A program made the position numbers and the translations under genes. From the sequence record PP129558: a stretch of DNA of 64,000 nt. One strand, given 5' to 3'. This document shows, piece after piece, positions 15,007 to 62,456 of the stretch; position 1 is the first letter of the stretch, and every line of letters starts with the position of its first letter. This DNA comes from Escherichia phage vB_EcoM_01. The notes beneath the pieces are model-generated. The model worked only from the letters and a program-made list of their open reading frames with translations, searched no databases and was not told the origin of the DNA.

Positions 15007-18000
15007 TCAATGACAGGATGCCCAGGAATTACCCACGTCATATCCGGCAGTAAGCTGAACGTTAAGATTGTAAAATTCTCCAGCCTTAGTAACAGCTAAA
15101 GCAGCAAGCTCACCTGCCCGACTATAAGCTGTAAACCATCCACCTTTAGGAGATTCATGAATGTTAGCCCAAATTTGCCCTGTCTCTTTTTCCTTATTAT
15201 GCTTCCATTCTTCAACTTTAGCAAGGCATTCTTTATCAATTTTCTTTTGTTCTTCAGGATCGTCTACTTTCTTCCAACCTAATGATTCAGGTGAAAACCA
15301 TTTAAATTCTACAAGGTTACGAGAAACTTCAAGCTGGGCTTCATCGTGATATGCAATCATTTGTTGCACGAAGTCTTTATTCTTCCAGTCATCTTTAAAG
15401 AAGTCAACACTTAGCCCTTCTTCTTCTATCATGTCGTCATAAATAACCATTGCACGTTTAGCGCAGATAACCCCACCACTTTGGAACAGAGAGTTAAGAA
15501 TCGCGTGAGCAGAACGAGTAGGAACCTTACGACCGTCAATACCCAAAACATACTGTTTACCAGTCTTAACCCAGAAATCGTTTAAACGTTCTTTAAGACG
15601 TGCCAGTGGGAATGCAGCTTCCCAGAAAGCATCAAACACCAATTGACCTGTAAACTTATCGCTACCAATTGTTTTAGCAACCTTGTCGGCTTGTGCACCA
15701 TAGGTAATACCATACTTAACAGATTTAGCAGGACTACGTTCAAATTTACGTCCAATAGTTTCAGTGATACGTTTTGCCATCATTGTGTGAACATCGTTAG
15801 GTTTCTCTAACAACAGAGCGTTACAATATTCATGTGGCTCCGGCTCGTACCGCCAACAGTAGTGTGATTCAATTTTTGCTTCCAAAGAGTCGAAGTCGTA
15901 GCCGATCTGGAAGTATTTAGGCNNGTCTCTTATACACATCTGACGCTGCCGACGACAGACGTGGTGTGTAGATCTCGGTGGTCGCCGTATCATTAAAAAN
16001 NNNNNNNNNNNNNNNNNNNNNNNNNNNNNNNNNNNNNNNNNNNNNNNNNNNNNNNNNNNNNNNNNNNNNNNNNNNNNNNNNNNNNNNNNNNNNNNNNNNN
16101 NNNNNNNNNNNNNNNNNNNNNNNNNNNNNNNNNNNNNNNNNNNNNNNNNNNNNNNNNNNNNNNNNNNNNNNNNNNNNNNNNNNNNNNNNNNNNNNNNNNN
16201 NNNNNNNNNNNNNNNNNNNNNNNNNNNNNNNNNNNNNNNNNNNNNNNNNNNNNNNNNNNNNNNNNNNNNNNNNNNNNNNNNNNNNNNNNNNNNNNNNNNN
16301 NNNNNNNNNNNNNNNNNNNNNNNNNNNNNNNNNNNNNNNNNNNNNNNNNNNNNNNNNNNNNNNNNNNNNNNNNNNNNNNNNNNNNNNNNNNNNNNNNNNN
16401 NNNNNNNNNNNNNNNNNNNNNNNNNNNNNNNNNNNNNNNNNNNNNNNNNNNNNNNNNNNNNNNNNNNNNNNNNNNNNNNNNNNNNNNNNNNNNNNNNNNN
16501 NNNNNNNNNNNATCATTGTGTGAACATCGTTAGGTTTCTCTAACAACAGAGCGTTACAATATTCATGTGGCTCCGGCTCGTACCGCCAACAGTAGTGTGA
16601 TTCAATTTTTGCTTCCAAAGAGTCGAAGTCGTAGCCGATCTGGAAGTATTTAGGAACCTCTACACCAAACAAGTTACGCATCTCCCATCCAAACAAAGAT
16701 GTGACACGAGGAATGTTAGCTACAGACCTATGCTTCATACGAGAGGTTGCAGCATCACATGTAGCTGCTGGGGTAGGAATACGACCATCCGCCCTTACTG
16801 CGGCTAAGAAACCTTTATCGTATTCTTGATCTTCTTCATCTTCTTCCCAATCAGCACCGCCACCTAAAATAGAGTTCCTACGATGCTTATACGTTAAGTA
16901 TTCTACAATCTGTGTAGCATAAGGGAATTTCTCACCCAAAGCTTGCAGGTTAGGACAGATTTCTTTTTCCTGACCTTTGGTAAAACATGGGTTAGTCAAT
17001 ACTTTAAGACCGCGACCTTTACCTTTTGCTATACGCTCTTGAATCTTCCTTTCCAAGGTTTCCGGTGTGCACTCCAGATGATCACAACGGTCCTGACAAA
17101 AATTAGAAGATAAAGTTTGCTCAACGTAAGCTCGAATACCTTTCTGAAGTTCTTCCTCGCTCTTTTTAATCTTGGTGCCAGATTTAAGAGTCAAGTCTTT
17201 ATCTTTATATTCAGACGGTACCCAACCTAATCCTACAAGCCAGTTTTTAATATGGGTTGTATCGTTCAATGTTGCAGGGATGTGAGGATCACATAAAGGC
17301 TCATCTGCTGCAACTGGCAGTTTCCACTCTTTCCCCAACATAACTAACCACCAATCTCCATCCCTCTCTTCCAAATGACCATCATGTTTCTTAGCAAAAT
17401 TGATCATATGGTTAGTTGGCTCTAAGTTCTTTTTAATTTGCAACTTAGGTGGAATAAAAGCCTTAAGATAGCCTTTTGTTGCTGGTTTAGGTGGCAAAAT
17501 AGGCTCAACGAGTAAACGAAGACGCTCCATTTCTGCATCCAAAAAAGCAAGGTTCTCTTCTGCTTGCTTCATGTTAAAAGCAAATCCACGGTGTTCCTGG
17601 CGTGTAATAATGTCTGCTACACGTTGTTCAAGTTCAAATGGACCTTCCCATTTATCATAATCACCCCACTCTTCCATAAGGTAATTATATACGCTTGTAT
17701 TAGCTTTGTTGTCATAGATACAGTAATAAAGCATATCCGCAGCAAAAGTCTTAAATCGATCTTCTTCTGGAATCTCTTTACGGAAATCTATTTTTACATC
17801 ACCACCTGCTTTTCGAGAAAGTGCTGCCAAGCTATGTCCTGATTTGCCCTCAATCTTTCGATCTGGGTTTAACACTTTACTCAAAATCAAGGAGTCAATA
17901 AGTTTTACCTTATTTTTGCCCCACGTATTATATTTAACACTGTAATCTAATCCATAAAACAGTTTTGTAGCCAACCAGTCGTAGTTGATACCGTTGTGAG

Positions 18001-18337
18001 CCACAGCCATTTCAACCAGATATTCAGGCTTGTCTTCAAAATAACCTTCATGATTAATAAAGTCTGGGAAATCTTTTAGTTGAAAATGTGTGTAATCTTG
18101 CGCCACATACTCTTTAAGAACATATGTGTATTTACCATCTGACTCTTCATAAGGACGCCCATCAAAGATGTATTTAGGGCCATCGTGGAAAGCTACTATT
18201 TCTCCTGTTTCATGGTTCTCTAAGACAATACAGTGCATTTGAAATGTGTCTTTGAGACGATAAGGACTAGCTAAATAATCAATAGTGTCATTATTCAACA
18301 ATCCGTTTGCTTCAATATCCCATGTAAACTTACTCAC
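15007..18337 (-). CDS. family A (Pol I-like) DNA polymerase with 3'-5' exonuclease domain; gene interrupted by assembly artifact
   Basis: N terminus FTWDIEANGL (exo motif); C-terminal part RSPAKSVKYGITYGAQADKVAKTIG resembles family A motif B; the ORF is split by adapter plus N gap at 15922-16511 with 144 bp duplicated on both sides. Confidence 0.8.
15922..15999. other. sequencing adapter contamination (Tn5 mosaic end + index + flow-cell sequence), not biological
   Basis: tctcttatacacatctgacgctgccgacga...gtgtagatctcggtggtcgccgtatcatt is a Nextera-type adapter read-through. Confidence 0.9.
16000..16511. other. scaffold gap (N-run) with duplicated flanks
   Basis: 512 n; 15779-15922 is repeated at 16511-16654. 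Confidence 0.95.
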
Positions 18338-19131
18338 TATTCCTCCTTTCTAATGTTCTCCAGAACCCACTGAAGTTCTTTTAAACTTAAACTTCTTACT
18401 CCCGCAGTTTTACTAGCTTCAGCTTTAAGTAACGGGTAAGCCTCAATGATACGCGTTTTAAGATCAGAAGTCAAGGCTTTTAAAAAATAGGTAGATGCTT
18501 CAGATAAAGAATCTTCTTCTGATAACACTTTACCTGCACTTGCTCCCGCTCTCCTAACGGCTATATCGTAGTCTTTACTGTTACCTAATACGAACAGTCG
18601 ATTCTCTCCTAAAACAACGGGAGAACGCTTCTCGTTGCGTTTAATCCATATCTGGAATACACAAGGAACATCCCAAGGTTCTCCATGAAGAATAAAAGAT
18701 CCTTTTGGACATTCTTCTTCGTAAAGAAGATGCATGTGGGGATTTAGTTTGTGTGCAAAAAAGATTTTTTGAAATGTGCGAGGCAAGATAAAACAAATAC
18801 CACCTTCGTTATCCAACATTTCAGCACAATGGTTAAAGAACTTAATGGCAAGACTGGCATTTTTTCCAAACGGAGGATTACCGACAAAAGCAGTTACACT
18901 GCCAACAGACTCAACAGATTGAGCTAAAAAATCTGCCTCAATACAATCTTCAAACTTAGGGTCAATATCAAAAGAAGTTATGTTTTTAAAACAAGAAGAG
19001 AAAGCTCCTTCTCCCGCAGATGGTTCTACGTAGTTAGCTTCCTCTCCAAAAATTTCTTTGATCTTATCACATAAGAACCCCGCATAAGCGGGGTTAGTGT
19101 AATATTGATCAAGTGTATTCAACTTGCTCAA
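18337..19131 (-). CDS. DNA N6-adenine methyltransferase (orphan)
   Basis: 264 aa; EPSAGEGAF (AdoMet motif I-like) and VGNPPFG ((D/N)PP(F/Y) catalytic motif). Confidence 0.65.
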   Translation of the reverse strand: MSKLNTLDQYYTNPAYAGFLCDKIKEIFGEEANYVEPSAGEGAFSSCFKNITSFDIDPKFEDCIEADFLAQSVESVGSVTAFVGNPPFGKNASLAIKFFNHCAEMLDNEGGICFILPRTFQKIFFAHKLNPHMHLLYEEECPKGSFILHGEPWDVPCVFQIWIKRNEKRSPVVLGENRLFVLGNSKDYDIAVRRAGASAGKVLSEEDSLSEASTYFLKALTSDLKTRIIEAYPLLKAEASKTAGVRSLSLKELQWVLENIRKEE

Positions 19132-19666: not shown

Positions 19667-21443
19667 AATAGTTGCTATCCGTAGGCAAATTAGCAGGATT
19701 GTTGAAATACTGCTCTTTGTCATGCAGAGTTGCAGTTCTAATGTCATAGTAAAACTGCCCTGCCGGACCAGTTTCCGAGAACTCACGGTTTTTTAGGATA
19801 AAGCAATGAGTCGTATTGCGTTCTACAGGGTCTTCAGCGGCTTTATCTCGTTCCAAAGCCAAGGTAATACCAGCACCTTTAGCCAAGAAACTACTACCCA
19901 TTGCATCGTCCTCTGTTAAGTGTTCATTGCCACCATTAGCCGACTTCTTAACGTGTGAGATGACGATAATGGTTATAGCATACTCTTTCATGATGCGCTT
20001 CAACCATGTTGCTAACTCTTCCTGGGCTTGAACATCCATACCAGAAAGCAAATCAGAATAAGGGTCGATAACAAGAATTGTTACTCCAAAATAGATGATC
20101 ATCTCCAAAACTTTTTCTTTGATAGACTCCACATCTGCTCCACGATCATCACACACATAAAAACGTGGTGATCCATCTTCTCTTTCGTAAAAATCTAGGA
20201 TTTTTTCTTTATTCTCTTCCAAGATTTGAAATTTCTCTTCCGGTGTTTTCCTGTGTAGAGGAATATGCAGGAACGAGGACAACAGGTTACGAGAATATTT
20301 CTTATAAGTTGCTTCCAAGGACAGAATACCTAGGGTATGTTCTGGGTGCGCAACAATAATATGTTTGGTGATCTCGTTCACCATCAAAGTTTTACCGATA
20401 CTGGTCTTTGCCAGGATAACTGTAATCTCTTCCTCTACTAAACCACCACCCAGCATATTTGCAGCAACACGCATAAAAGGAGGCAAGGTAATCATCTTGG
20501 ATTCCAAGCATTCTAATGCAGCTTCATACAAGACATTAGAAGCATAAACACCTGCTGGGGTGTATAGACGAGCACTCCAAAAAGCTTTTACGAAATCTTT
20601 TGCACGACCTTCTTCCAGATACTGATTGGCATCCTTAAGATCCATCTGCATACGGTAGACTTTGTTACGAGGCAGCACCTTAACAATATTTTCAAATGCC
20701 TCATTACCTGCTTTGTCATTATCCATGCAAACAATAATCTTCTTAAATTTTTCAAAGAAAGGATATTGTGCCTGAACTTGTTTATACATACTGGTTTCAC
20801 CAGTTGTGCCACTAACTACTGCTGGAAGTTCATATTTGTTGTCCAAGTTTTCAGACAGCATTTGATAAGCTGCCAGAGCATCGTGTTCACCACCTGTAAT
20901 TACCACAGTATGAGAACGGTCTGCAAAACGAATTTGTCCAAAAAGATCTACATCTTTACCTACTTGACCAATAGGTTTGCTGAAATCTTTAGGATGAATA
21001 CGACGCTTAAAACCAACCAACTCTTTACCGATAGTAGTTGGATATAAACAACTTTCTACTACCATCTGATCCCCTTCCTGACGGTATTCATAACGAACAC
21101 CATAGAAAGATGAAACTTTTTCTTTAATGCCTCGATAACCACGTGGGTTGGTTGATGTTTCTTGAACAATTTTACGATGAATCTGTTTATTAAATTCCGA
21201 ACCCACAATCTCCTCCTCTTCTTCTAAAACTTCACCATTTTCTCGTAACCATTCTACGCTAGGAATAGTGTATTCACACGCAAAGCACTTAGCACCTTTA
21301 TGCTCTCCATTAGAATCTAATCCATAAACCATCAGGTTATTACGAGAGCGATCCTTGCCATTTTTCATGCAGCGCGGACAACCTGTATGCCCTTCCTTGC
21401 TAAGATCAACATCAAATCCATATTTAGTTATAATGTGCGACAC
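19665..21443 (-). CDS. primase-helicase (zinc-finger primase N-term, DnaB-like helicase C-term)
   Basis: 592 aa; CPRC...CFAC zinc motif; SIGKT Walker A-like and ILVIDPYSDL Walker B-like. Confidence 0.65.
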   Translation of the reverse strand: MSHIITKYGFDVDLSKEGHTGCPRCMKNGKDRSRNNLMVYGLDSNGEHKGAKCFACEYTIPSVEWLRENGEVLEEEEEIVGSEFNKQIHRKIVQETSTNPRGYRGIKEKVSSFYGVRYEYRQEGDQMVVESCLYPTTIGKELVGFKRRIHPKDFSKPIGQVGKDVDLFGQIRFADRSHTVVITGGEHDALAAYQMLSENLDNKYELPAVVSGTTGETSMYKQVQAQYPFFEKFKKIIVCMDNDKAGNEAFENIVKVLPRNKVYRMQMDLKDANQYLEEGRAKDFVKAFWSARLYTPAGVYASNVLYEAALECLESKMITLPPFMRVAANMLGGGLVEEEITVILAKTSIGKTLMVNEITKHIIVAHPEHTLGILSLEATYKKYSRNLLSSFLHIPLHRKTPEEKFQILEENKEKILDFYEREDGSPRFYVCDDRGADVESIKEKVLEMIIYFGVTILVIDPYSDLLSGMDVQAQEELATWLKRIMKEYAITIIVISHVKKSANGGNEHLTEDDAMGSSFLAKGAGITLALERDKAAEDPVERNTTHCFILKNREFSETGPAGQFYYDIRTATLHDKEQYFNNPANLPTDSNY

Positions 21444-21455
21444 TTTGTTCTCCTG

Positions 21456-21734
21456 TTAAAATGGTTCGTTAGTCTCCATCATATATTCTGCTTCTAGTTC
21501 TTCCATGTGCTTTCTAAATTGGAAAGCAATTTCTGCTACAGTTACATTTAAATCTTTTTCAAAAACTTCTGTAGAGCCTTCATAAAAACGAATACCGTCG
21601 ATTAAAAGCCCTCCGTGGTAATCCCAATCACTTTCACGAGAAAGCGGGTTAGGCTCTTCATAATAGTAATCCACCTCCACGACTAAGGCTTTCCCGTTAC
21701 GAGTGGTGTATTCAAAATCAAAAGTGTTAATCAT
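21456..21734 (-). CDS. hypothetical protein
   Basis: 92 aa ORF. Confidence 0.45.
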   Translation of the reverse strand: MINTFDFEYTTRNGKALVVEVDYYYEEPNPLSRESDWDYHGGLLIDGIRFYEGSTEVFEKDLNVTVAEIAFQFRKHMEELEAEYMMETNEPF

Positions 21735-22678
21735 TATAGCTCCTCAAATAAAAGTCTACGACGCTCATTCAACACATCAATGTGATAATGAGTCCTGACA
21801 TACTTAGCTAATGCTAATCCTTTCTCCATGCAAACATCGGGAGCACTTAATAAGTATTCCGTAATATCTTTCCACTCGGAAGGTGTTTCAGCAAAGAATA
21901 ACAAATCTTTAAACTCTTGTGTATGATAATTCTCACGAGGAGAACAGATCAAAGGTAAACCCTTAGCACCTGCCTCAAGAATTTTAAGATTGCTTTTTGC
22001 ATTATTAAACACGTTATCAAGCAATGGCGCAAGACTGATTTGATGACCATCGTAAGATTCCATGTAGTTGGCATATGGTCTTACACCTTCATAAACACAA
22101 GTTGGTGCTACATTTTCTCTGATCACAGACCATTCACGACTACTTAAAACTTCAGAATCCCTACGAAAACCACATATTGTAAGATCTTTACCAAAATCGG
22201 GCAAGATAGCCAAATCTTGTTTATGTGTTTCACTTCCAGCCCAGACTAATGGAGTTTTGGAGTAGCGATCACGGGTCAACACAAATTGACCTTCATCGTA
22301 AGGAAGACCATTAGGGATTATGTGCACATTATCATTGTATTGTGAAAGTTCAACTTGCAAAGCAGGTGTCGTAGTTGTAACAAGATCGCTGTGCTCTAAA
22401 AACCATTTTAAATGTTCACGAATACCTGATTCAAAAATACCTTCTAACATGTGTCCTTTTGGAATAACTAAAGAGTCATCCAAATCCATAACCATTTTAA
22501 AGCCTAGGTTTTTAAGGGCTAAAAAGCCCTCTTTACCTTTTGTTGGCACTCCGTTAAAAACGAAAACGTTGTGTTTAGGTTGTGAAGAGAACTGCCTTGA
22601 GTAAGGCAGCACTACCCTATGGAAATCGCAGACACTATAATTGATTCCGTTACGATTGTCAAGAATTATTTGTCCCAT
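21734..22678 (-). CDS. glycosyltransferase-like protein (GT-B-like), paralogue 1
   Basis: 314 aa; C-terminal NLKILEAGAKGLPLICS resembles the E-x7-G..P sugar-donor motif of GT1/GT4 enzymes; paralogous to next gene. Confidence 0.5.
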   Translation of the reverse strand: MGQIILDNRNGINYSVCDFHRVVLPYSRQFSSQPKHNVFVFNGVPTKGKEGFLALKNLGFKMVMDLDDSLVIPKGHMLEGIFESGIREHLKWFLEHSDLVTTTTPALQVELSQYNDNVHIIPNGLPYDEGQFVLTRDRYSKTPLVWAGSETHKQDLAILPDFGKDLTICGFRRDSEVLSSREWSVIRENVAPTCVYEGVRPYANYMESYDGHQISLAPLLDNVFNNAKSNLKILEAGAKGLPLICSPRENYHTQEFKDLLFFAETPSEWKDITEYLLSAPDVCMEKGLALAKYVRTHYHIDVLNERRRLLFEEL

Positions 22679-22685
22679 ACTTCAC

Positions 22686-23633
22686 CTACAAACTTTCAAT
22701 AACCTGGCGTCGCAACTCATTTGCATCTGCCAGATTATAATGTGTTCGAACATGTTCAGCCAAGAACAAGCCACGATCTTCCCGATAATTTGGATTGCGA
22801 AGAAGCTTAACAATTTCGTAATGCCATTCTGCTTTATTCTCTGCGTAAGTAACAGCACGAGCATCTACAGGGTTAAAATAAGGTAATACCTTAGAACAAA
22901 CAATCGGAATACCTTTTGCCCCAGCTTCAAGGATTTTGAGATTACTTTTACAATTATTAAAATCATTGTCTACCAAAGGAGCTATAGCAATAGCATGACT
23001 TTCGTAAACACTCATGTAATTATCTAAATCTTTTACAGCAGCTTTATATTTGGCGTTTGGTAAATTTCTACGGATCTTAATCCACTCTTGCCCTGTGATA
23101 CTCTGCGATGCTTCATATCCTGCAATAGTAAGAAGTTCATCATCGAAAGTATTAGAGACTAGTCGTAAATCGGGTTCGTGACTAGCACCGCCAGCCCATA
23201 CAACAGGGGTACCGGATGAACGATCATTTGACAAAGTGAATTGTCCGCTATCAAAAGGAAGTGCATTTCGGATCACAACAACATTCCTATTTAAGTGACG
23301 GATCTTATATGCCAAATATTCCGTAGTCACAATGACCACATCGGCAAGCTTAACCATAGCTACAATAGCATGAGTGTTTGACTCATATAAACTTGCTAAA
23401 TAATGTTCTGGATTAAGTTGGTAGAAATCATCTAAATCTACAACAATCTTAACACCTTGACGTTTCAGGGACAGAACATATTCTGCCCCTTTAGAATGAA
23501 TACGGTTAAACACGACAACATCTTTCTTAGGCTGAAAATTATTGTTGTTAAATGGTATAACAATACGATGATAATCACAACCACTGTGAGGTTTTGCATC
23601 AATTTTCAGTTTAGTCCATTTTTTATTTGACAT
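22686..23633 (-). CDS. glycosyltransferase-like protein (GT-B-like), paralogue 2
   Basis: Shares NLKILEAGAKGIPIVCS and TPVVWAGG motifs with 21734-22678; start set at ATG 23633 with GAGGAGG RBS (track ORF extends to 23672). Confidence 0.5.
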   Translation of the reverse strand: MSNKKWTKLKIDAKPHSGCDYHRIVIPFNNNNFQPKKDVVVFNRIHSKGAEYVLSLKRQGVKIVVDLDDFYQLNPEHYLASLYESNTHAIVAMVKLADVVIVTTEYLAYKIRHLNRNVVVIRNALPFDSGQFTLSNDRSSGTPVVWAGGASHEPDLRLVSNTFDDELLTIAGYEASQSITGQEWIKIRRNLPNAKYKAAVKDLDNYMSVYESHAIAIAPLVDNDFNNCKSNLKILEAGAKGIPIVCSKVLPYFNPVDARAVTYAENKAEWHYEIVKLLRNPNYREDRGLFLAEHVRTHYNLADANELRRQVIESL

Positions 23634-24306
23634 GTGCCAGTGCCTCCTCATAAGAAATTCGGATTTTCCCATTTTTAATATCTTCTAAAGACGCTTTATA
23701 TTCTTCCCAGTTAATGCCAATAGCAACTTCTTTCTCTTCTTTTGTCAGATTAGCAAAAGGCATAGGATTGTTTCCAAAAACATCGTCTGGGTGGATATAA
23801 GCCATGATACGAAGTGGACAAGGTATTGCCTGAATGCCCTGATTCAAACCAGCAGCTTTCAAACGGTGTACCCATTCAGCATCTTCAAAACCATAGCCGT
23901 GAGTGTAAGGGCGGAAATAACCCATCTTCTCAACAACGGCACGAGAATACATTGCAAATTGACACATTGCAAGTTCCCAGAGAATAACTTCTCCTTTACT
24001 CCCAACAACTTTATCTTTGAAATACTCCGGCATACCAAAGAAATCCCATCCTCCAGAGACAGCTTGATCTACAAAATATGTTTCCCATCCCTCCATGATT
24101 GGGTAGCAATCGTCGTCAAAAATAAACCAATAATCATAACCTTCTTCATAAAACTGGTGCATAAGTTCATTCCTGGCGTAAGCTACACCTTTACGATCTG
24201 GATCGTTGAATACTCGAAAATCTGCATGTGGATCTGTTACAAGGTAGTCTTTAAGTGGACGGACACCTACAGTGATAACACCCACTCCGATTTTAATATT
24301 TTCCAT
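23623..24306 (-). CDS. glycosyltransferase-like protein (GT-A fold, DxD)
   Basis: 227 aa; GVGVITVG near N terminus, FIFDDDCYP (DxD-like), GFEDAEW. Confidence 0.45.
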   Translation of the reverse strand: MENIKIGVGVITVGVRPLKDYLVTDPHADFRVFNDPDRKGVAYARNELMHQFYEEGYDYWFIFDDDCYPIMEGWETYFVDQAVSGGWDFFGMPEYFKDKVVGSKGEVILWELAMCQFAMYSRAVVEKMGYFRPYTHGYGFEDAEWVHRLKAAGLNQGIQAIPCPLRIMAYIHPDDVFGNNPMPFANLTKEEKEVAIGINWEEYKASLEDIKNGKIRISYEEALAHVK

Positions 24307-24314
24307 TTTCTCTC

Positions 24315-24878
24315 CTAAATAGTTTTACTGTGATCGTGACAGTGTAATAAATGATGTATAGACCGTTGAGGATTTGTTTGACCTAATCTGTAAATGTGAA
24401 ACAGATACATTCCCCGCATCAATCCTAACCTCTTTCCTTTTTCATGTAAAGTGCGAGAGAAAATTAAGTCGAATTGGATAGATTTTTCTTCGAAAGGAAT
24501 TTCATTCCACAATGATTTTCTAAAAAGCAAAAAGAAACCTGCCAGAGGTGTTCCGAAAGGAACTTCTTCAACACTCACTTTATGATATTCTCTTGCAATC
24601 TTAGCATATTCTATATGGTTTAGAATATCTGGATCATCGTTAATTTGGTTAGAGAAAAGCTGATAACCACTACCTAACCTGTTACAAGTTGCACCTATTA
24701 CATCAAAAGGCGGGTTTGACATAACAAGCTCTTCAAGCATAGATGGTTGATCAGGCAGGAGGAACATTGTATCGGTATCTCTTAAGCACACCCAACTATC
24801 ATCTGGAAGAACGGCAATAGCTTCATTGATAGCCTTGCCGATATTTCCTGTCAGATAGGGAGTAATATAATAAATCAT
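24315..24878 (-). CDS. possible glycosyltransferase (GT-A-like) / hypothetical
   Basis: 187 aa; YITPY...RDTD motifs; same block as three GT-like genes. Confidence 0.35.
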   Translation of the reverse strand: MIYYITPYLTGNIGKAINEAIAVLPDDSWVCLRDTDTMFLLPDQPSMLEELVMSNPPFDVIGATCNRLGSGYQLFSNQINDDPDILNHIEYAKIAREYHKVSVEEVPFGTPLAGFFLLFRKSLWNEIPFEEKSIQFDLIFSRTLHEKGKRLGLMRGMYLFHIYRLGQTNPQRSIHHLLHCHDHSKTI

Positions 24879-24894
24879 TCTCCCCTCCGTTATA

Positions 24895-25086
24895 TTAACT
24901 GTCAGCTACAATCCCACGTTTAATCATTTCTTGTTGGATTTGGATGACACGATCTCGTGCTTCCATATATTCTTTAAAAGATTCTTGGAGATGGTCACGA
25001 GCTACATCCCGTAGTTTAATCAGCTTGTCGTTTGTCACTTCTTGAAGAGAGATCTCGCCAGTTTCATTGGTCCCAAGCGTTTTCAT
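24895..25086 (-). CDS. hypothetical small protein
   Basis: 63 aa ORF. Confidence 0.4.
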   Translation of the reverse strand: MKTLGTNETGEISLQEVTNDKLIKLRDVARDHLQESFKEYMEARDRVIQIQQEMIKRGIVADS

Positions 25087-25342
25087 TTACAACCTCCTTA
25101 ATAGCTACTGCACAGTTCTTACAAATACATTGACCTTTGTTCTTAGAAATTTCAATGTAAGGTTCATTTTCGTTTTCTCCGCGTCGTGAATCGTATATTA
25201 CTGTATTGAAGCAGACAACGCAAATGTTTTTAATAACGACATATTTTTGCACTTTCTGTTTAGTGCGAAAATTGACTTCAATGACTTCTCCCATCAATGA
25301 ATCTCCCCTAAAATGTTGTTTTGAGACATTACTGCGGAGCAT
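25064..25342 (-). CDS. small Cys-rich (zinc-ribbon-like) protein
   Basis: 92 aa; CVVC...CICKNC. Confidence 0.4.
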   Translation of the reverse strand: MLRSNVSKQHFRGDSLMGEVIEVNFRTKQKVQKYVVIKNICVVCFNTVIYDSRRGENENEPYIEISKNKGQCICKNCAVAIKEVVNENAWDQ

Positions 25343-25579: not shown

Positions 25580-26101
25580 TTAACTCCCCTTTGGTAGATA
25601 GAAACCATGCACTTTATCTCGATAAACAAGACGCATATCACGTTCCCAGTGTGTCCTTATATTCCGTTTCTTGAAGTATAGAGCACCTTTAGTAACATCT
25701 AAAACAGACCGCAATTCAGGAAAATGTTTCTCTAAATAAAGTAAACGCTCCGCTATTGCTTTTGCTTCCTGCCACTTATCTTTCTCTGTTACGTTAAAAG
25801 TTTTCGCATATGAGAATTGTCCTTTCTGGAACAAGACTCCTCTGACTGTGTTAGGGAAGTAGGTATCATTTCTTCTGTTGATTACCACATTCCCAACGGC
25901 ATTCATTCCTTTTTTACCCAGACCTCGACCTTCTGCGTAAATTGCACAAGCTAATAGAATTTTATCATTATATTGCTTTGTACATTTGTGAACTACTTTA
26001 GCAGTTTTTACGTTTGCAGCTTCGGCTTTCGCCACAACAGGTGTAAATGTAAAAGCAGTTAAGGATAGTAACGCAACTGTTACAAAGTTTTTTATCAGCA
26101 A
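25580..26101 (-). CDS. secreted cell-wall hydrolase (SleB/CwlJ-like)
   Basis: 173 aa; N-terminal signal-like segment; CAIYAEGRG...GMNAVGNVVINR...VLFQKGQFS resembles spore-cortex-lytic hydrolase family. Confidence 0.6.
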   Translation of the reverse strand: MLIKNFVTVALLSLTAFTFTPVVAKAEAANVKTAKVVHKCTKQYNDKILLACAIYAEGRGLGKKGMNAVGNVVINRRNDTYFPNTVRGVLFQKGQFSYAKTFNVTEKDKWQEAKAIAERLLYLEKHFPELRSVLDVTKGALYFKKRNIRTHWERDMRLVYRDKVHGFYLPKGS

Positions 26102-26200: not shown

Positions 26201-26803
26201 TTACGGACATTCATACCATTCTTTTTTACCACCAAAGGCCATCACCACATCACAAATATCCAGACCAGCTTTACCTACACCATATGCTTTCAGCTTCCAT
26301 TCCCCATCTTCACGAACCAAGGAAGCCACGTGGCAGATTGTGTTGCCAGCTACTTCAGGAGCCAGGAAGTCAAAATCCAGAATTTCCACATTGCGCTCGG
26401 AGTCGAAGATTTTAAGCATACCTTCAGAAGCATGACCAAAACGTTTCAGACCTGTATCATCATCAATGGTCAGAACAAAGGCAATCTCTTGTGCGTCAGG
26501 AGAGATTTTAGCCAGAGTAATATCAATCTGCTCCATGCTGCCAGTTCCATCACGAACATCGTCACCAGCGAAGGTAGAACGTTCAGGATCAAACTTGTTA
26601 GCATAGCAAACCAGATGACGTGCAGACAGCATTTCAGGATTGCCAGCGGCATTGTGACGACAAACCAGTGCACTTACATCCAGATCTAGTTTAGAATCAG
26701 ATTTCCAAGAGAATTCCAGGCGCAGTTCTTTCAGAGCCGGAGCAACTTTCTTCAGGGAAATTTTTTCGCTAGAGCCTTTTTTCAGGGAAATTTTATCAGT
26801 CAT
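26201..26803 (-). CDS. terD: TerD-domain protein
   Basis: 200 aa; N-terminal ISLKK repeats, LDLDVSALV, GDDVRDGTGSMEQIDITL, IAFVLTIDD, DGEWKLKAYGVG match conserved TerD blocks. Confidence 0.8.
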   Translation of the reverse strand: MTDKISLKKGSSEKISLKKVAPALKELRLEFSWKSDSKLDLDVSALVCRHNAAGNPEMLSARHLVCYANKFDPERSTFAGDDVRDGTGSMEQIDITLAKISPDAQEIAFVLTIDDDTGLKRFGHASEGMLKIFDSERNVEILDFDFLAPEVAGNTICHVASLVREDGEWKLKAYGVGKAGLDICDVVMAFGGKKEWYECP

Positions 26804-27088: not shown

Positions 27089-27317
27089 TTCTTCCTCCTA
27101 ATGTTATCTCCGGTTTGTATATACGAAGAATTATAGCATTTTCATTTTCTTTGTCAACCCATTCTTCATAATCAGGCCATACATGAATCTCTACTCTACT
27201 TACAATATCTTCCATTCGCACAGTCCCAATGAAATACTCTTTGAGACTGCGCATAATGAAAGCTTCTCTCTCGCGCCAATAATTTTCTATGACTTGAGAG
27301 GCAAGCTCGTCGATCAT
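27069..27317 (-). CDS. hypothetical protein
   Basis: 82 aa ORF. Confidence 0.45.
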   Translation of the reverse strand: MIDELASQVIENYWREREAFIMRSLKEYFIGTVRMEDIVSRVEIHVWPDYEEWVDKENENAIILRIYKPEITLGGRSVKLRN

Positions 27318-28108
27318 TTTTTAGCACCTACTTTAACAACCCACTCTCCGAACTCTTCAGATAAGAGTTTGTCATAAAGCTCTGAATCTGTCAAGTCTAA
27401 ATCTTTAATGCCAATAAAACCAACATTATCATAAGCATTTGCCAGTTCTTTCAGGAAGCCAAACTTCTCATTACCAACGCCAACCATGAACCAATAAATA
27501 GGTTTATTCTTATTCTCTTCGATAAGACGACGAACAGCACTAGGATCACCATTCTCACCATCAGTCTGGAAGAATACAACACCAGGGGTAACGTCAGCAC
27601 CTGGTTCAGATACAGCTACAACTTTTTCACGCTCTACAGACACTGTTTCAGTTTTACCAAGCAGACGATTAAAGAAGCCTTTCTTTGGAGCCTCCTCTTG
27701 TACCACTTGTTTAGTGGTAATATATTTAGTAACAGTGCCAAAATACTCATCGTAGATATCCGCCATTACAGGGGCGTAATTTGTTCCACCTCCGATACGA
27801 ACATTACGCATACATTTACCAACATAATCGTCGTAAACATCTGCTGTTGCTGGAGTAAGCTCTTGGGAACTCGTATTGAAGGCCCACATATCAATTTGTT
27901 GATTATCGTCGAACAGCATACCAAAAGGAAGCAGTTTACCTACAAAATCACTCACTACCCCACTAGAATATAGACCATGCATACTACCAGAAATATCTAG
28001 AGCACATGCTACACGAAGAACAATCTTACCTTCGTTCAGGTTCTTATTCTTTTTCAGAGAGAAAGCAAGGTTTTCTTGACGTTTTTTCAGGCTGATTTTC
28101 TCGGACAT
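27314..28108 (-). CDS. von Willebrand factor A domain protein (TerY/TerF-like)
   Basis: 264 aa; MIDAS-type motif VACALDISGSM; N terminus carries ISLKK/FSLKK segments like the TerD gene. Confidence 0.65.
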   Translation of the reverse strand: MSEKISLKKRQENLAFSLKKNKNLNEGKIVLRVACALDISGSMHGLYSSGVVSDFVGKLLPFGMLFDDNQQIDMWAFNTSSQELTPATADVYDDYVGKCMRNVRIGGGTNYAPVMADIYDEYFGTVTKYITTKQVVQEEAPKKGFFNRLLGKTETVSVEREKVVAVSEPGADVTPGVVFFQTDGENGDPSAVRRLIEENKNKPIYWFMVGVGNEKFGFLKELANAYDNVGFIGIKDLDLTDSELYDKLLSEEFGEWVVKVGAKK

Positions 28109-39308: not shown

Positions 39309-40727
39309 TTATCGTTTGGAGAGGAATTGTCTTCCCATGATCTTACCGTTCTTTACAGCGGTCCCATCGTGTCCATTATAATCCCAAGTTCCATCAATGT
39401 TACGCAAGAAGCTATCACGAACAGTGTAGGCTTTACCGTTCTCTACTTTACTTTCTTCAACAATGATTGCCATAACAAGCTTATTTTCAATTTCGGTAGT
39501 AACCGATTCTTTAATACCCTCTGTAACTTCACGATCATATTGGATATAAACTCGCTCCTCGGTCACTTGCACGTCTACCACATTTTTAAATGTGTATGTC
39601 TGCTGTGTAGTGTAAAGGACACGAACAACACTCTTCTTACCTACTGGCGGCTTCTTACGAGGCTTACGGTAACGTGGTTTAGGGTTGTTAGTTGGAAGCC
39701 AACCAACAATATCCCGATCATATCCAACATGACCCCAAGTGAAATGCGTAGCCGATCCACTATCCGTAGTTCCGTCACGAAAGAGAACTTCTACGTGACC
39801 ACCACAAGGGCGGTGTCCACCATTATTATAGTTGTATTTTGCCGTGCGCGGGAGAATGAAGTATTCTTTAATTGCCCACTCTTCCAGATTGTCGATATTC
39901 CAAGTGAATACTGTTCCCTTAGCAACATCTGTTTGACCATTGTTGAAGCGAACCTGCACGAAATCTTCTGAAGGCATAACACCTGTGTTCGGCAGATATT
40001 CAAATGCAGTATCTTCCGCTACAAACTGTTCTTCCTCTTGCTCCTCAATACTTGGCACAGGCGCAGCTTCATCGTATTTCGCAGCAAACATATTTTTAAA
40101 TTCTTGAGCCGTGACTTCTACAAGGCCGCGATCACCAGTAGCAACAGAGTGTGGGCGTGGTAAATCCCCAACTTCAATATGCATTGCATCTAAGCCTGCT
40201 TGACGATCAAAGAAGATAACCTTGCGGAATTGTTTATCTTTATATTGTGGCAGTTCATACATACTTGGATCGATTGTCTTCAAACGTTCAGCATCTTCTG
40301 GCTTCCAGAAGCTTTTACCTGTTGCAAATCTAAAGTCTACCAGTAGTTTAACAACATCTCCTAATGATAAACTATCTGCATCTACGAAAACGTCTTCGAT
40401 TCCCAATAACCCTGATTTCTTAAGAATCAGATCTAACATGTAACCTCCTGTGGTTTGTTCTGCGTCTGGATAACGATCAACACTGGTGCTGGTTACACCG
40501 TTTATTTCACCAGTGGAGGCATTGTAGGAAATATATGGGAAGGTCATATCGTTCATTGCAAAATCACCTGAACAGGTTGGATCATCTTCTCCCTCCCAGC
40601 CATACACCTTCACAATACCTTCACATAATTTGTCATACACACCAGCGCGACGTGCTGCTTCAGCAACTTCCTGTTTACGGGCAAATTTATTAATCATGAT
40701 TCCTCCTGTTAATTGCCATAGATGCAC
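39309..40727 (-). CDS. hypothetical protein
   Basis: 472 aa ORF, no motif recognised. Confidence 0.55.
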   Translation of the reverse strand: MHLWQLTGGIMINKFARKQEVAEAARRAGVYDKLCEGIVKVYGWEGEDDPTCSGDFAMNDMTFPYISYNASTGEINGVTSTSVDRYPDAEQTTGGYMLDLILKKSGLLGIEDVFVDADSLSLGDVVKLLVDFRFATGKSFWKPEDAERLKTIDPSMYELPQYKDKQFRKVIFFDRQAGLDAMHIEVGDLPRPHSVATGDRGLVEVTAQEFKNMFAAKYDEAAPVPSIEEQEEEQFVAEDTAFEYLPNTGVMPSEDFVQVRFNNGQTDVAKGTVFTWNIDNLEEWAIKEYFILPRTAKYNYNNGGHRPCGGHVEVLFRDGTTDSGSATHFTWGHVGYDRDIVGWLPTNNPKPRYRKPRKKPPVGKKSVVRVLYTTQQTYTFKNVVDVQVTEERVYIQYDREVTEGIKESVTTEIENKLVMAIIVEESKVENGKAYTVRDSFLRNIDGTWDYNGHDGTAVKNGKIMGRQFLSKR

Positions 40728-41247
40728 GAGGTTCGGCTATGGCTGTTGCATAAATATATGGATGACCTTGTGGGGACAATCTTGTTCCGAATGACCCTAA
40801 TTCTAAACCATTCATGTCTTCCACGTCAAGCCCTATTTCTGTTTCTACAATTCTTGTTTGGACTTTGTAGTAGGTCCAGAAGAAGTATCGCATTTCTTCG
40901 GCATACTCTTTCACTTCACCAAAGCTGGGATAGAACTCAATCAACTCCAGCTTCAAGAAGATGTTGAAGTGAGAATCATCCAACACTTCCTCTGTGCGGT
41001 AACATGGTGTCAGGGCCATGTAGGGATGACCAGCGATAAACTCGTAGCCATCCTTTTCCATTTGCAAGAATGATTGCTCGGCACTGGCAACATAAAACTT
41101 CCCATTAGGATGCCCCAAAGGAGCATCTTCTTTGCCAGGTGGCAGTGTGAATGCCAAAATATCTGCATCCACTAAATAAGGAACATCTAACATTTCAGCA
41201 AAGCGTCCATAACTCTGGATGGCTTCGGCAATCACACCTGTGTTCAT
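40690..41247 (-). CDS. hypothetical protein
   Basis: 185 aa ORF. Confidence 0.5.
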   Translation of the reverse strand: MNTGVIAEAIQSYGRFAEMLDVPYLVDADILAFTLPPGKEDAPLGHPNGKFYVASAEQSFLQMEKDGYEFIAGHPYMALTPCYRTEEVLDDSHFNIFLKLELIEFYPSFGEVKEYAEEMRYFFWTYYKVQTRIVETEIGLDVEDMNGLELGSFGTRLSPQGHPYIYATAIAEPRASMAINRRNHD

Positions 41248-41495
41248 GACCTTCCTCCTGTGCGAAACGCACGTTTAGTAATGTTTGACATAATGATCAA
41301 ATCTTGTAAAGTCGTACCTGGGAACTGTTGTTCTAACACTCCCTCGACAGCACCTATAATATCAGATAGTTCAACAAGTTGCATTATTTTGCAATCCTGT
41401 TCAACAGCATCGAAAAGTTCTTCCACTTCCTCTTTAATCTTTTCTATGCTTCCGTAAGATTGTTTCTTAATGTCTGTTATGTGATACCCTGCCAT
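41244..41495 (-). CDS. hypothetical protein
   Basis: 83 aa ORF. Confidence 0.45.
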   Translation of the reverse strand: MAGYHITDIKKQSYGSIEKIKEEVEELFDAVEQDCKIMQLVELSDIIGAVEGVLEQQFPGTTLQDLIIMSNITKRAFRTGGRS

Positions 41496-51973: not shown

Positions 51974-53146
51974 ATGGCGAAGACGTTAGAACAGTATATA
52001 GGAGAATGTAAACCAATAGCGGAAGCTAAAGGATATGAGATTATAGGGATTGTAGAGCCATTTAAAGNAGGTGTGCACACGAAGATGATCAACTTCTGCC
52101 CTAATCNNNNNNNNNNNNNNNNNNNNNNNNNNNNNNNNNNNNNNNNNNNNNNNNNNNNNNNNNNNNNNNNNNNNNNNNNNNNNNNNNNNNNNNNNNNNNN
52201 NNNNNNNNNNNNNNNNNNNNNNNNNNNNNNNNNNNNNNNNNNNNNNNNNNNNNNNNNNNNNNNNNNNNNNNNNNNNNNNNNNNNNNNNNNNNNNNNNNNN
52301 NNNNNNNNNNNNNNNNNNNNNNNNNNNNNNNNNNNNNNNNNNNNNNNNNNNNNNNNNNNNNNNNNNNNNNNNNNNNNNNNNNNNNNNNNNNNNNNNNNNN
52401 NNNNNNNNNNNNNNNNNNNNNNNNNNNNNNNNNNNNNNNNNNNNNNNNNNNNNNNNNNNNNNNNNNNNNNNNNNNNNNNNNNNNNNNNNNNNNNNNNNNN
52501 NNCTGCCTGCTCTCACGATGAGTATGTGCAAGCTGGGGTGTGTGATGGTAAGTTTTATGTCGCAGGGAATGACCTTAAACAAGGGAAGATTCCTTGCCGT
52601 TGTGCAACTAACTGTCATTACACAGAAGCACAGATTACCTATAGGGTAAAAAAGGCAGTAGAAAGGAAAGGGTATATCTGGGTAGGTTGGATCGGGAAAC
52701 CGTCTGTAAGATTAGGTAAGTTTAAATATGGATGTAAGAAACATGGGGTACAAATAGGACGTGCCAGTGGTTTGTTAAATCATGGTACTGGTTGTCCGCA
52801 ATGTGCTAACCAGACACAACAACAATGTTACATTAACCACATCCATGATGAACAAGGTATTCTCTGTGCTTTGAAATTTGGAATTGCCAATAATAGTGAT
52901 CGCCGTATCAAAAAACAAAATAGTCATAATGTGTTTACTATGAAACAGGTCCAAGTGTGGCACTTCCCTACTGTGAAGCAATGCAAAGATGCAGAGAAGC
53001 GTTGTAAGCGTGTCCTTCACACGGAAGCAGTGAGCAAATATGCTATGCCAGATGGCTACACAGAGACAGTGGAGTTATCTTGCATGGCATCAATACAAAA
53101 CATTTATAAACTTTATGGTGGAACATTACAGGAGGAAACATGTTAG
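51974..53146 (+). CDS. Cys-rich protein (zinc-ribbon motifs), interrupted by gap
   Basis: C-terminal 214 aa after gap has CRCATNC and CPQC; N-terminal 44 aa before gap; internal sequence unknown (52107-52502 N). Confidence 0.4.
   Translation: MAKTLEQYIGECKPIAEAKGYEIIGIVEPFKXGVHTKMINFCPNXXXXXXXXXXXXXXXXXXXXXXXXXXXXXXXXXXXXXXXXXXXXXXXXXXXXXXXXXXXXXXXXXXXXXXXXXXXXXXXXXXXXXXXXXXXXXXXXXXXXXXXXXXXXXXXXXXXXXXXXXXXXXXXXXXXXXACSHDEYVQAGVCDGKFYVAGNDLKQGKIPCRCATNCHYTEAQITYRVKKAVERKGYIWVGWIGKPSVRLGKFKYGCKKHGVQIGRASGLLNHGTGCPQCANQTQQQCYINHIHDEQGILCALKFGIANNSDRRIKKQNSHNVFTMKQVQVWHFPTVKQCKDAEKRCKRVLHTEAVSKYAMPDGYTETVELSCMASIQNIYKLYGGTLQEETC
52107..52502. other. scaffold gap (N-run)
   Basis: 396 n. Confidence 0.95.
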
Positions 53147-61216: not shown

Positions 61217-62456
61217 ATGAAAGAAGTTATGATCCTCAAAAAATCACCTATTTTACGTGGTGGCTTTATCGCTTACTCTGATGATCTGTTAATTGCAACA
61301 GTTGCAAAAATACTAAAATCAGAAGATGACAGTAAANNNNNNNNNNNNNNNNNNNNNNNNNNNNNNNNNNNNNNNNNNNNNNNNNNNNNNNNNNNNNNNN
61401 NNNNNNNNNNNNNNNNNNNNNNNNNNNNNNNNNNNNNNNNNNNNNNNNNNNNNNNNNNNNNNNNNNNNNNNNNNNNNNNNNNNNNNNNNNNNNNNNNNNN
61501 NNNNNNNNNNNNNNNNNNNNNNNNNNNNNNNNNNNNNNNNNNNNNNNNNNNNNNNNNNNNNNNNNNNNNNNNNNNNNNNNNNNNNNNNNNNNNNNNNNNN
61601 NNNNNNNNNNNNNNNNNNNNNNNNNNNNNNNNNNNNNNNNNNNNNNNNNNNNNNNNNNNNNNNNNNNNNNNNNNNNNNNNNNNNNNNNNNNNNNNNNNNN
61701 NNNNNNNNNNNNNNNNNNNNNNNNNNNNNNNNNNNNNNNNNNNNNNNNNNNNNNNNNNNNNNNNNNNNNNNNNNNNNNNNNNNNNNNNNNNNNNNNNNNN
61801 NNNNNNNNNNNNNNNNNNNNNNNNNNNNNNNNNNNNNNNNNNNNNNNNNNNNNNNNNNNNNNNNNNNNNNNNNNNNNNNNNNNNNNNNNNNNNNNNNNNN
61901 NNNNNNNNNNNNNNNNNNNNNNNNNNNNNNNNNNNNNNNNNNNNNNNNNNNNNNNNNNNNNNNNNNNNNNNNNNNNNNNNNNNNNNNNNNNNNNNNNNNN
62001 NNNNNNNNNNNNNNNNNNNNNNNNNNNNNNNNNNNNNNNNNNNNNNNNNNNNNNNNNNNNNNNNNNNNNNNNNNNNNNNNNNNNNNNNNNNNNNNNNNNN
62101 NNNNNNNNNNNNNNNNNNNNNNNNNNNNNNNNNNNNNNNNNNNNNNNNNNNNNNNNNNNNNNNNNNNNNNNNNNNNNNNNNNNNNNNNNNNNNNNNNNNN
62201 NNNNNNNNNNNNNNNNNNNNNNNNNNNNNNNNNNNNNNNNNNNNNNNNNNNNNNNNNNNNNNNNNNNNNNNNNNNNNNNNNNNGGAAAATTGAATATCGC
62301 GAGATGATCGACGATGAAACGGGGCAGGATTTTAGCGAGTACGTTTATATTCGTTCCGAGACATTAGCCGAACGTTTGATCGAGAAAATGAAAGCAAAAA
62401 ATAAAATTAATTTATCTCATTGGATTGATATAACAAACGATCCAGCTTATCAGTAA
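61217..62456 (+). CDS. coding region interrupted by large gap (one or more genes)
   Basis: N-terminal 40 aa with RBS before gap; C-terminal 57 aa after gap ending at 62456 followed by terminator; 61337-62283 is N. Confidence 0.35.
61337..62283. other. scaffold gap (N-run)
   Basis: 947 n. Confidence 0.95.

Follow-up and report, generated by a model that had tools for sequence, protein, structure and literature searches.

Organization and enzymes of the cassette

The sequence analysed here is a stretch of 64,000 nucleotides (nt) of Escherichia phage vB_EcoM_01 (record PP129558), called the window below, which carries on its minus strand a tandem block of four glycosyltransferase (GT)-like genes. 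The genes are named GT1 to GT4, and the CAZy family GT4 is always written as a family to keep it apart from the gene. GT4 (24315-24878) encodes a putative small GT-A enzyme of 187 amino acids (aa) with an RDxDTMF, DxD-like motif, and falls in phrog_14179. GT3 (23623-24306; 227 aa; phrog_2456) has a predicted GT-A fold with DDD and YGFED motifs, while GT2 (22686-23633; 315 aa; phrog_7162) is a putative GT-B enzyme and a paralogue of GT1 (21734-22678; 314 aa), which is predicted to be a GT-B enzyme similar to the CAZy GT4 family. GT3 and GT1 represent the core of a module found in many phages. All four proteins match PHROG families labelled glycosyltransferase (E 1e-78 to 1e-149) and none of them matches an NCBIfam model. 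The preliminary description of this DNA, made from the sequence alone, had reported the same block, and its coordinates are right. RefSeq also annotates all four genes as "glycosyltransferase", so the bare annotation is not new; a literature search found no experimental work on these four genes.

The four genes form an operon, which is transcribed in the order GT4, GT3, GT2, GT1 and continues into an open reading frame (ORF) of 92 aa and the primase-helicase gene. Neighbouring genes of the block either overlap by 1-11 nt or have 7-8 nt between them, all four possess a Shine-Dalgarno site of their own, and a scan of the block for internal terminators gave no convincing one. The start of GT2 at the ATG at 23633 is supported by a GAGGAGG Shine-Dalgarno sequence 9 nt upstream and by the RefSeq annotation of gp213 of phage ESCO5; an alternative in-frame ATG upstream, at 23672, would give a protein of 328 aa. 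The GT region contains no runs of N. No transmembrane segments are found in GT1-GT4, in all of which the highest Kyte-Doolittle window of 19 residues is at most 1.65. The cassette is flanked downstream by the primase-helicase gene and upstream by a SleB-type endolysin gene and Ter genes, the same neighbours that the preliminary description had given. Positions 21400-25100 are 99% identical over their whole length to Escherichia phage ESCO5 and 95-99% identical to about 60 further myoviruses of the phAPEC8 type, with genomes of about 150 kb (Phapecoctavirus, Stephanstirmvirinae), and the window is colinear with about 85.9-149.3 kb of ESCO5.

GT1 and GT2, which had been recognised from their EAGAKG motif as two paralogous GT-B-like genes, are 41% identical (E 3e-77) and have in common the motif LEAGAKG(L/I)P(L/I)(I/V)CS. 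The AlphaFold (AF2) model of GT1 has a GT-B fold (pLDDT 88, pTM 0.88), with two predicted Rossmann-like domains and the putative nucleotide-sugar site in the C-terminal domain; GT2, which matches phrog_7162 with E 1e-148, would have the same fold on the basis of its 41% identity to GT1. A Foldseek search of the PDB with the GT1 model gives 213 matches at E<=1e-3, and enzymes of the CAZy GT4 family dominate the best 50 of these 213. The matches include GlgM (E 4e-10), BshA, TreT, GtfC/Gtf3, SdgB, PglA, MshA and PimB, with TM-scores of about 0.6, and among them GtfC/Gtf3 and SdgB are protein-glycan enzymes. These bacterial retaining enzymes of the CAZy GT4 type have the same two-Rossmann-domain fold as GT1, and their C-terminal donor-binding region with a conserved Glu is also found in GT1. 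GT1 differs from them in its low identity (12-16%, at TM about 0.6), in its shorter N-terminal domain and in its own invariant CDYHR..LP and DLDD motifs. At the sequence level the likeness is limited to the C-terminal motif, where the GT1/GT2 family profile matches TreT (E 3e-4) and LKILEAGAKG is aligned with the donor-site region. GT1 matches the Pfam model Glyco_trans_1_2 with 25.1 bits, only marginally above the cutoff of 25, and GT2 matches Glyco_trans_1_4 and Glyco_trans_1_2 with 21-22 bits, below the cutoffs. In the GT1/GT2 alignment, a near-invariant S-x-CDYHR-x-x-LP stretch (residues 13-25 of GT1) falls in the only low-confidence part of the GT1 model (pLDDT <50), which looks disordered; this stretch might bind the acceptor as a loop or hold a metal, as a feature peculiar to this family of GT-B enzymes.

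GT3 has the motifs FIFDDDCYP and YGFEDAEW, in which D64-D66, Y138, G139, E141 and D142 are invariant in the family, and it matches phrog_2456 with E 1e-78. Its AF2 model (pLDDT 84) is a single Rossmann-like GT-A fold with the acidic DxD motif placed after a beta-strand, which agrees with the earlier reading of this gene as GT-A-like from its DDD and GFEDAEW motifs. In the Foldseek search with GT3 the first solved structure is A197 of the archaeal virus STIV (E 1.6e-6), followed by ColGalT1/LH3, ppGalNAc-Ts and mimivirus R699, so that the best fold matches are a viral GT-A and protein-glycosylating enzymes of the collagen and mucin types. A197 is, like GT3, a minimal viral GT-A with a DxD motif, but it is only 18% identical to GT3 at TM 0.5-0.6.

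GT4, which had been described as a further possible GT-A, is probably a glycosyltransferase judging from its sequence relatives, since it matches phrog_14179, labelled "glycosyltransferase", with E 8.5e-113. The DxD-like motif stands in the family alignment, where RDxDTMF is conserved and D34 and D36 are invariant, and together with the PHROG label it makes a small GT-A possible; the fold assignment itself found no backing in Pfam, the PDB or NCBIfam, where GT4 has no match, nor in comparison with the GT3 family, where the hhalign probability is 0.7% and not significant. GT4 is homologous to the C-terminal domain of gp40 of Cellulophaga phage phi12:1, which has a TOD1/MUCI70 GT-like domain in its N-terminal half, and in Cellulophaga phages the GT4 homologue sits within the head-gene module and adjoins a Methyltransf_24 gene. 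Sequence and profile searches of the PDB with GT1, GT3 and GT4 gave nothing useful beyond the C-terminal matches of the GT-B profile to CAZy GT4-family enzymes.

The GT3 and GT-B gene pair across phages

At least 405 viral contigs of IMG/VR encode relatives of GT3; 80 loci were fetched from them and grouped at 70% identity, which gave 28 clusters. In 23 of the 28, GT3 has a GT1-type GT-B gene as its immediate neighbour in the same orientation, and GT4 stands beside GT3/GT-B in 12, while the gene order within the module varies. Two natural fusions of 550 aa (P0126 and P0136) join a GT3-like domain to a GT1-like GT-B domain. GT3 and GT-B are thus a conserved and portable phage gene pair, which sequence comparison indicates to be a functional unit. 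What is new here is the recognition of this two-gene core, of its broad occurrence and of its homology to the enzymes of mycobacteriophage Rita described below. The size of the families depends on the search: in a word-indexed search of 5.8 billion proteins they seem tiny (33, 14 and 32 clusters), while an exhaustive profile search gives 968 representatives of the GT3 family, the two fusion proteins among them.

The module is found in very different genomic settings. In a Serratia HK97-like prophage GT4, GT3 and GT-B lie between the lysis genes and HNH/TerS/TerL, in a P22/Sf6-like phage the module is located between terminase and portal, and in a lambdoid phage it is found between the Q antiterminator and the holin/lysozyme genes. 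In Stephanstirmvirinae the GT3/GT-B core is joined by GT4 and by a second copy of the GT-B. The largest of the related clusters has two more GTs and a methyltransferase, located between primase-helicase and terminase, and the distant relatives are multi-domain GT2 proteins. Because of these extra GTs, the methyltransferase and the multi-domain relatives, a stepwise oligosaccharide is favoured over the addition of one sugar, and the product is probably a glycan chain. The multi-step glycosylation pathway that the preliminary description had proposed from four genes is strengthened by the co-occurrence of GT3 and GT-B, sometimes fused, in many phages.

The same proposal had relied on the position beside replication genes, which does not generalize. 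By a conservative local homology screen within 8 kb, 12 of the 28 clusters have only head or packaging genes (terminase, portal, capsid) in the neighbourhood, against seven with only primase-helicase or PolA, four of which are Stephanstirmvirinae-like; one cluster has both types of neighbour and eight are unclassified. Four clusters have the end of the major capsid gene at a distance of 220-520 bp from GT3, and one has TerL at 181 bp.

Among cultured phages outside the subfamily of vB_EcoM_01, the only GT3 relatives in the tblastn matches listed belong to about 350 cluster-F mycobacteriophages. Profile comparison by hhalign aligns the GT3 family along its entire length with the N-terminal domain of Rita gp101 over 208 columns (99.7%, E 1e-26) and with that of Wachhund gp097 (99.7%, E 3e-26). 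These proteins are 26-27% identical to GT3, with the KIGxGVxT, RN, FLFDDDCYP and YG(F/W)E motifs in common. Their genes are located at the right end of the genome immediately before HNH and terminase, the position that the cassette also occupies in the Serratia prophage. Residues 325-350 of Rita gp101 show a non-significant resemblance (36% over 25 residues) to the DxD region of GT4, and the C-terminal half of gp101 may be a second, GT4-like domain.

Several database records that carry these genes deserve a comment. A scan of bacterial genomes based on the GT3 alignment, with narrow search patterns, found only the same phage inside a metagenome-assembled genome (MAG): the 18.6-kb contig JAEZZU010000159.1 ("MAG: Proteobacteria bacterium OH_PFB_59") encodes a GT3 that is 100% identical to that of the window and is a phage contig binned into the MAG. 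MG065650 (Campylobacter phage B15) is 99% identical in nucleotides to this E. coli Phapecoctavirus region, and the GT proteins of MG065656 (C3), MG065639 (A150) and MG065689 (A110a) are 66-76% identical, a range typical of Justusliebigvirus. The Campylobacter jejuni host labels of B15, C3, A150 and A110a look doubtful, possibly through contamination or mislabelling.

Acceptor and sugar donors

The reading preferred here, held tentatively and at a little under an even chance, is a portable GT-A plus GT-B module for glycan assembly on an acceptor other than DNA, most likely a phage protein. Its conserved core would be one GT-A (GT3) working with one GT-B enzyme similar to the CAZy GT4 family, expanded in this phage by the duplication of the GT-B (GT1 and GT2) and by GT4 as an accessory small enzyme. 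The four soluble, co-transcribed enzymes would act in sequence, one of them attaching the first sugar to the acceptor and the others lengthening it to a short oligosaccharide, at most some four residues or branches in size. The donors would be nucleotide sugars of the host and dTDP-L-rhamnose made by the RmlABCD enzymes that close relatives carry, and the acceptor, as a best guess, would be found among the virion proteins of the phage itself (one or several of them), by analogy with the glycosylated cluster-F mycobacteriophages. We infer the sequential action, the rhamnose donor and the identity of the acceptor from the gene content and its relatives.

The dTDP-rhamnose pathway lies outside the window in close relatives, beyond the view of the preliminary description. 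ESCO5 encodes RmlA, RmlB, RmlC and RmlD, which all score above the NCBIfam equivalog cutoffs and map outside the region colinear with the 64 kb studied. RmlC is present throughout the subfamily that bears the cassette, including the BASEL phage Bas61, and this co-occurrence of Rml genes and cassette may reflect shared ancestry. An RmlB-like NDP-hexose 4,6-dehydratase is embedded in the module of an unrelated lineage (L031). Since ESCO5 has RmlABCD and this other lineage has an RmlB-like enzyme inside the module, rhamnose or another 6-deoxyhexose is a plausible donor. A possible sugar methyltransferase of ESCO5, gp256, annotated as "DNA methyltransferase", was rejected, as it is an XkdF-type prohead protease. 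The gene, which occupies 63543-64022 of NC_047776.2 (13543-14022 of locus L014) in the interval between portal and scaffold, matches Pfam Peptidase_S78_2 with E 1.4e-11, and its RefSeq label is likely a misannotation.

The link to virion glycosylation comes from the cluster-F mycobacteriophages (Cheoctovirus), which have several soluble phage GTs in a row, as found here: gp108-110 in Che8, gp101/gp103 in Rita and gp097/gp100 in Wachhund. A genome announcement (PMC11256854), with reference to Freeman et al. 2023 and a poster, states that the major capsid proteins of Che8 and Rita are glycosylated. Che8 gp108-110 were considered as homologues and rejected after profile comparison, in which only enzymes of the Rita/Wachhund type match; the link therefore runs through the Rita-type enzymes. 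Also in favour of virions are the 12 of 28 clusters with only head or packaging genes nearby, the position of the Serratia cassette before HNH and terminase, the GT4 homologue within the Cellulophaga head-gene module, the fold matches of GT3 and the lack of transmembrane segments.

Several points weigh against a virion protein as acceptor. Che8 gp108, gp109 and gp110, the enzymes that have been studied by experiment, have no detectable homology to GT3, GT4 or the GT-B, and the mycobacteriophage loci have no counterpart of GT-B or GT4, with no match for the C-terminal part of Rita gp101 or for gp103. For Rita, the evidence of glycosylation in PMC11256854 is a second-hand citation of a poster. 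The hosts also differ, being enterobacteria here. The TM-scores of the fold matches are modest (0.5-0.65) and generic for GT-A and GT-B folds. The cassette of this phage, in contrast to that of the cluster-F phages, lies beside replication and lysis genes, within a minus-strand block and not among structural genes, and seven of the 28 clusters are located near primase-helicase or PolA, as a-gt and b-gt of T4 are. No Ser/Thr-rich terminal tails were seen on the capsid, decoration, sheath and tube proteins of ESCO5, an observation that is uninformative in itself. The virions of ten phages have been stained and showed no glycoproteins; E. coli phages were included, and their relation to this phage is not established. 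The module moves among phages with unrelated capsids, a spread that would be easier if the acceptor were universal, for example DNA or a component of the host. The Rml genes of this exact phage are inferred from relatives, because they would lie outside the window.

A more specific form of the preferred reading is possible and somewhat doubtful. In it, the GT-A and GT-B pair would be a widespread and previously unrecognised glycosylation module, which would decorate virion proteins of enterobacterial phages (such as relatives of phAPEC8 and phi92) with an oligosaccharide containing rhamnose, built in part from dTDP-rhamnose that the phages themselves encode.

Remodelling of the host envelope is an unlikely alternative. 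The enzymes would then act on the lipopolysaccharide (LPS) core, the O-antigen, the enterobacterial common antigen (ECA) or another surface glycan precursor, and block superinfection or the adsorption of progeny to cell debris, a function of the kind suggested in the ZCKP1 paper (PMC6141743). Surface glycans and LPS core glucose are receptors of these phages, the combination of GT-A, GT-B of the CAZy GT4 type and dTDP-rhamnose is typical of LPS and polysaccharide synthesis, and lysis genes are neighbours of the cassette in vB_EcoM_01 as well as in the Serratia prophage and the lambdoid phage. Lysogenic conversion would be consistent with the occurrence of the cassette in prophages; however, temperate phages carry it in late lytic operons, downstream of Q or in the interval from terminase to portal, and these are not typical conversion loci. 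GT1-GT4 lack transmembrane segments, and no flippase, polymerase or Gtr-type membrane partner is found in the cassette or in the lists of neighbouring families. In the Gtr-type conversion of the O-antigen, by contrast, a GtrA flippase, a GtrB bactoprenol GT and a serotype-specific Gtr act as membrane proteins, which are not found here, and this phage is lytic. Besides, surface glycan synthesis in the course of a short lytic cycle would replace little of the existing envelope.

Another intracellular acceptor is rather improbable. It could be a host protein or a non-structural phage protein, with a role in takeover or anti-defence, or a small molecule such as the nucleoside-like metabolite that biosynthetic clusters with Ter genes are predicted to make, Ter genes lying just upstream here. 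Genes for TerD, vWA-TerF, TelA, TerC, phosphoribosyltransferase (PRTase), HAD and phosphatase proteins adjoin the cassette both here and in distant members of the subfamily, but Ter genes are absent from the surroundings of the module in temperate phages and most IMG/VR clusters. All four GTs are soluble, with their genes in a block of early or middle type, and BshA, MshA and TreT, their relatives in the CAZy GT4 family, act on small molecules; on the other hand, a set of at least four GTs, in some cases accompanied by a methyltransferase, speaks for a polymeric glycan, and this acceptor has no precedent and no specific homology behind it.

The glycosylation of DNA is very unlikely and is now the least supported option, so that the caution of the preliminary description, which had named it as only one hypothesis, was right. 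Sugars, possibly rhamnose, would be placed on modified bases to evade restriction or CRISPR, as in the glucosylation of 5-hydroxymethylcytosine by T-even phages, and Olsen et al. 2020 (PMC7552041) speculated on the addition of rhamnose to hydroxymethylated nucleotides. The location of the cassette near primase-helicase, an N6-adenine methyltransferase-like gene and PolA would agree with this, as a-gt and b-gt of T4 are also found among replication genes, seven of the 28 related clusters are replication-adjacent, and the portability of the module between unrelated phages fits a DNA acceptor as well.

The T-even enzymes (T4 alpha-GT of GT72, T4 beta-GT of GT63 and the beta-glucosyl-HMC-alpha-GT of T2/T6) are soluble phage GTs encoded among replication genes, like those described here, and the T4 DNA glucosyltransferases also have a GT-B fold. 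The preliminary description had pointed to T4 alpha- and beta-glucosyltransferases as possible relatives, but profile similarity to them is absent: the GT-B profile gives hhalign probabilities of 1.6% with beta-GT and 0.9% with alpha-GT, and neither enzyme is among the best 50 of the 213 Foldseek matches of GT1. GT3 matches the PHROG of the T-even beta-glucosyl-HMC-alpha-glucosyltransferase with E 5e-6, only over 40 residues around the DxD motif, and tblastn of GT3 against 50,697 phage records has no T-even phage among the matches listed. The TET/JBP-associated TAGT family (PF20691) resembles GT3 as a small phage GT-A with a weak local match around DxD (E 1.3e-3); this match has 19.2 bits over 36 residues, below the gathering cutoff of 27.5, and TAGT proteins come only at ranks 26 and 33 when viral proteins (BFVD) are searched with the GT3 fold. 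Both the TAGT and the T-even leads were rejected as evidence of family membership, as the matches are sub-threshold and local. Net charge and isoelectric point (pI) were dropped as an argument against DNA binding, GT3 having a pI of 4.9 and GT1 of 5.7 while T4 alpha-GT is likewise acidic (6.1).

The enzymes that would prepare DNA for glycosylation are also missing where they were sought. In all cases known to us, DNA is glycosylated through a hydroxymethyl or hydroxyl group of a modified base. The window has no hydroxymethylase or thymidylate-synthase homologue, as had been stated before. In ESCO5, about 99% identical, the only thymidylate-synthase homologue is of the ThyX type (Pfam Thy1, E 1.6e-8), and no ThyA-family dCMP/dUMP hydroxymethylase and no TET/JBP enzyme is present, judged from the annotation; neither occurs among the 25 most frequent Pfam families of 251 neighbouring proteins. 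The phi92-like relatives are reported to be "exceptionally susceptible" to restriction-modification (RM) systems (PMC8594841), and the RM-sensitive phi92-like phage Bas61 carries the orthologous four-gene cassette. A sparse or sequence-specific glycosylation of DNA without hydroxymethyl-pyrimidines is scarcely probable.

The ESCO5 thymidylate synthase (332 aa) is itself divergent and scores well below the NCBIfam thyX cutoff; its gene is followed by one for an NT5C-like 5'-nucleotidase, within 39755-41371 of ESCO5, an unusual pair in nucleotide metabolism.

Neighbouring genes and biological meaning

The ORF of 92 aa downstream of GT1 (21456-21734, minus strand) belongs to phrog_4240, of unknown function, and its ATG overlaps the GT1 stop codon. 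It is 35% identical to the equivalent ORF of a distant relative (L004) and has no counterpart beside the module in temperate phages; because it is conserved only within the phage subfamily, its membership in the module is doubtful. The conservation of the small ORFs that flank the cassette is limited to the subfamily, and no small partner or acceptor ORF adjoining the module is common to the different phage types. Three small subfamily-specific ORFs, one of them Cys-rich and zinc-ribbon-like, are present between the endolysin gene and GT4. The endolysin of the SleB/Hydrolase_2 type (25580-26101, minus strand) has a hydrophobic N-terminus that resembles a signal peptide or a signal-anchor-release (SAR) sequence.

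Beyond the endolysin, a TerD-like ORF (26201-26803) and a vWA-TerF-like ORF (27314-28108), both on the minus strand, are recognised by sequence motifs and synteny. Judging from the gene order in ESCO5 and related contigs, TelA, TerC, a phosphatase, a phosphoribosyltransferase and a HAD hydrolase come after them, up to about 37000, and the region from 26201 to about 37000 appears to be a Ter-type cluster for stress or a "nucleoside-like metabolite" in a lytic coliphage.

On the other side, between PolA and the primase-helicase operon, a 264-aa Eco57I/N6-adenine methyltransferase-like gene (18337-19131, minus strand) belongs to phrog_5172, has a weak Pfam match to Eco57I and is annotated in ESCO5 as a putative DNA N6-adenine methyltransferase. 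The PolA ORF (15917-18337, minus strand) is broken by a run of 512 N at 16000-16511. Further runs are located at 52107-52502 and 61337-62283, with many short ones beyond 49.4 kb, so the sequence is a masked or draft assembly, which is clean in the GT region.

In practical terms, the analysis defines a portable core of two genes, GT3 and GT-B. Phapecoctaviruses and phi92-like phages are coliphages of broad host range, often proposed for therapy, and for them the cassette of four enzymes, with the full dTDP-rhamnose pathway encoded in another part of the genome, represents a sizeable and strictly conserved investment. If DNA or the host envelope is modified instead of virion proteins, the cassette would be a new mechanism of counter-defence or exclusion. 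If the decoration of virions with a rhamnose-containing oligosaccharide is true, it would be the first case of a virion glycosylation system among phages with Gram-negative hosts. Glycosylated virions would extend the glycosylation of phage particles from mycobacteriophages to the phages of Gram-negative bacteria, with possible effects on immune clearance, antibody recognition, protein-sensing defence systems, particle stability and phage therapy.

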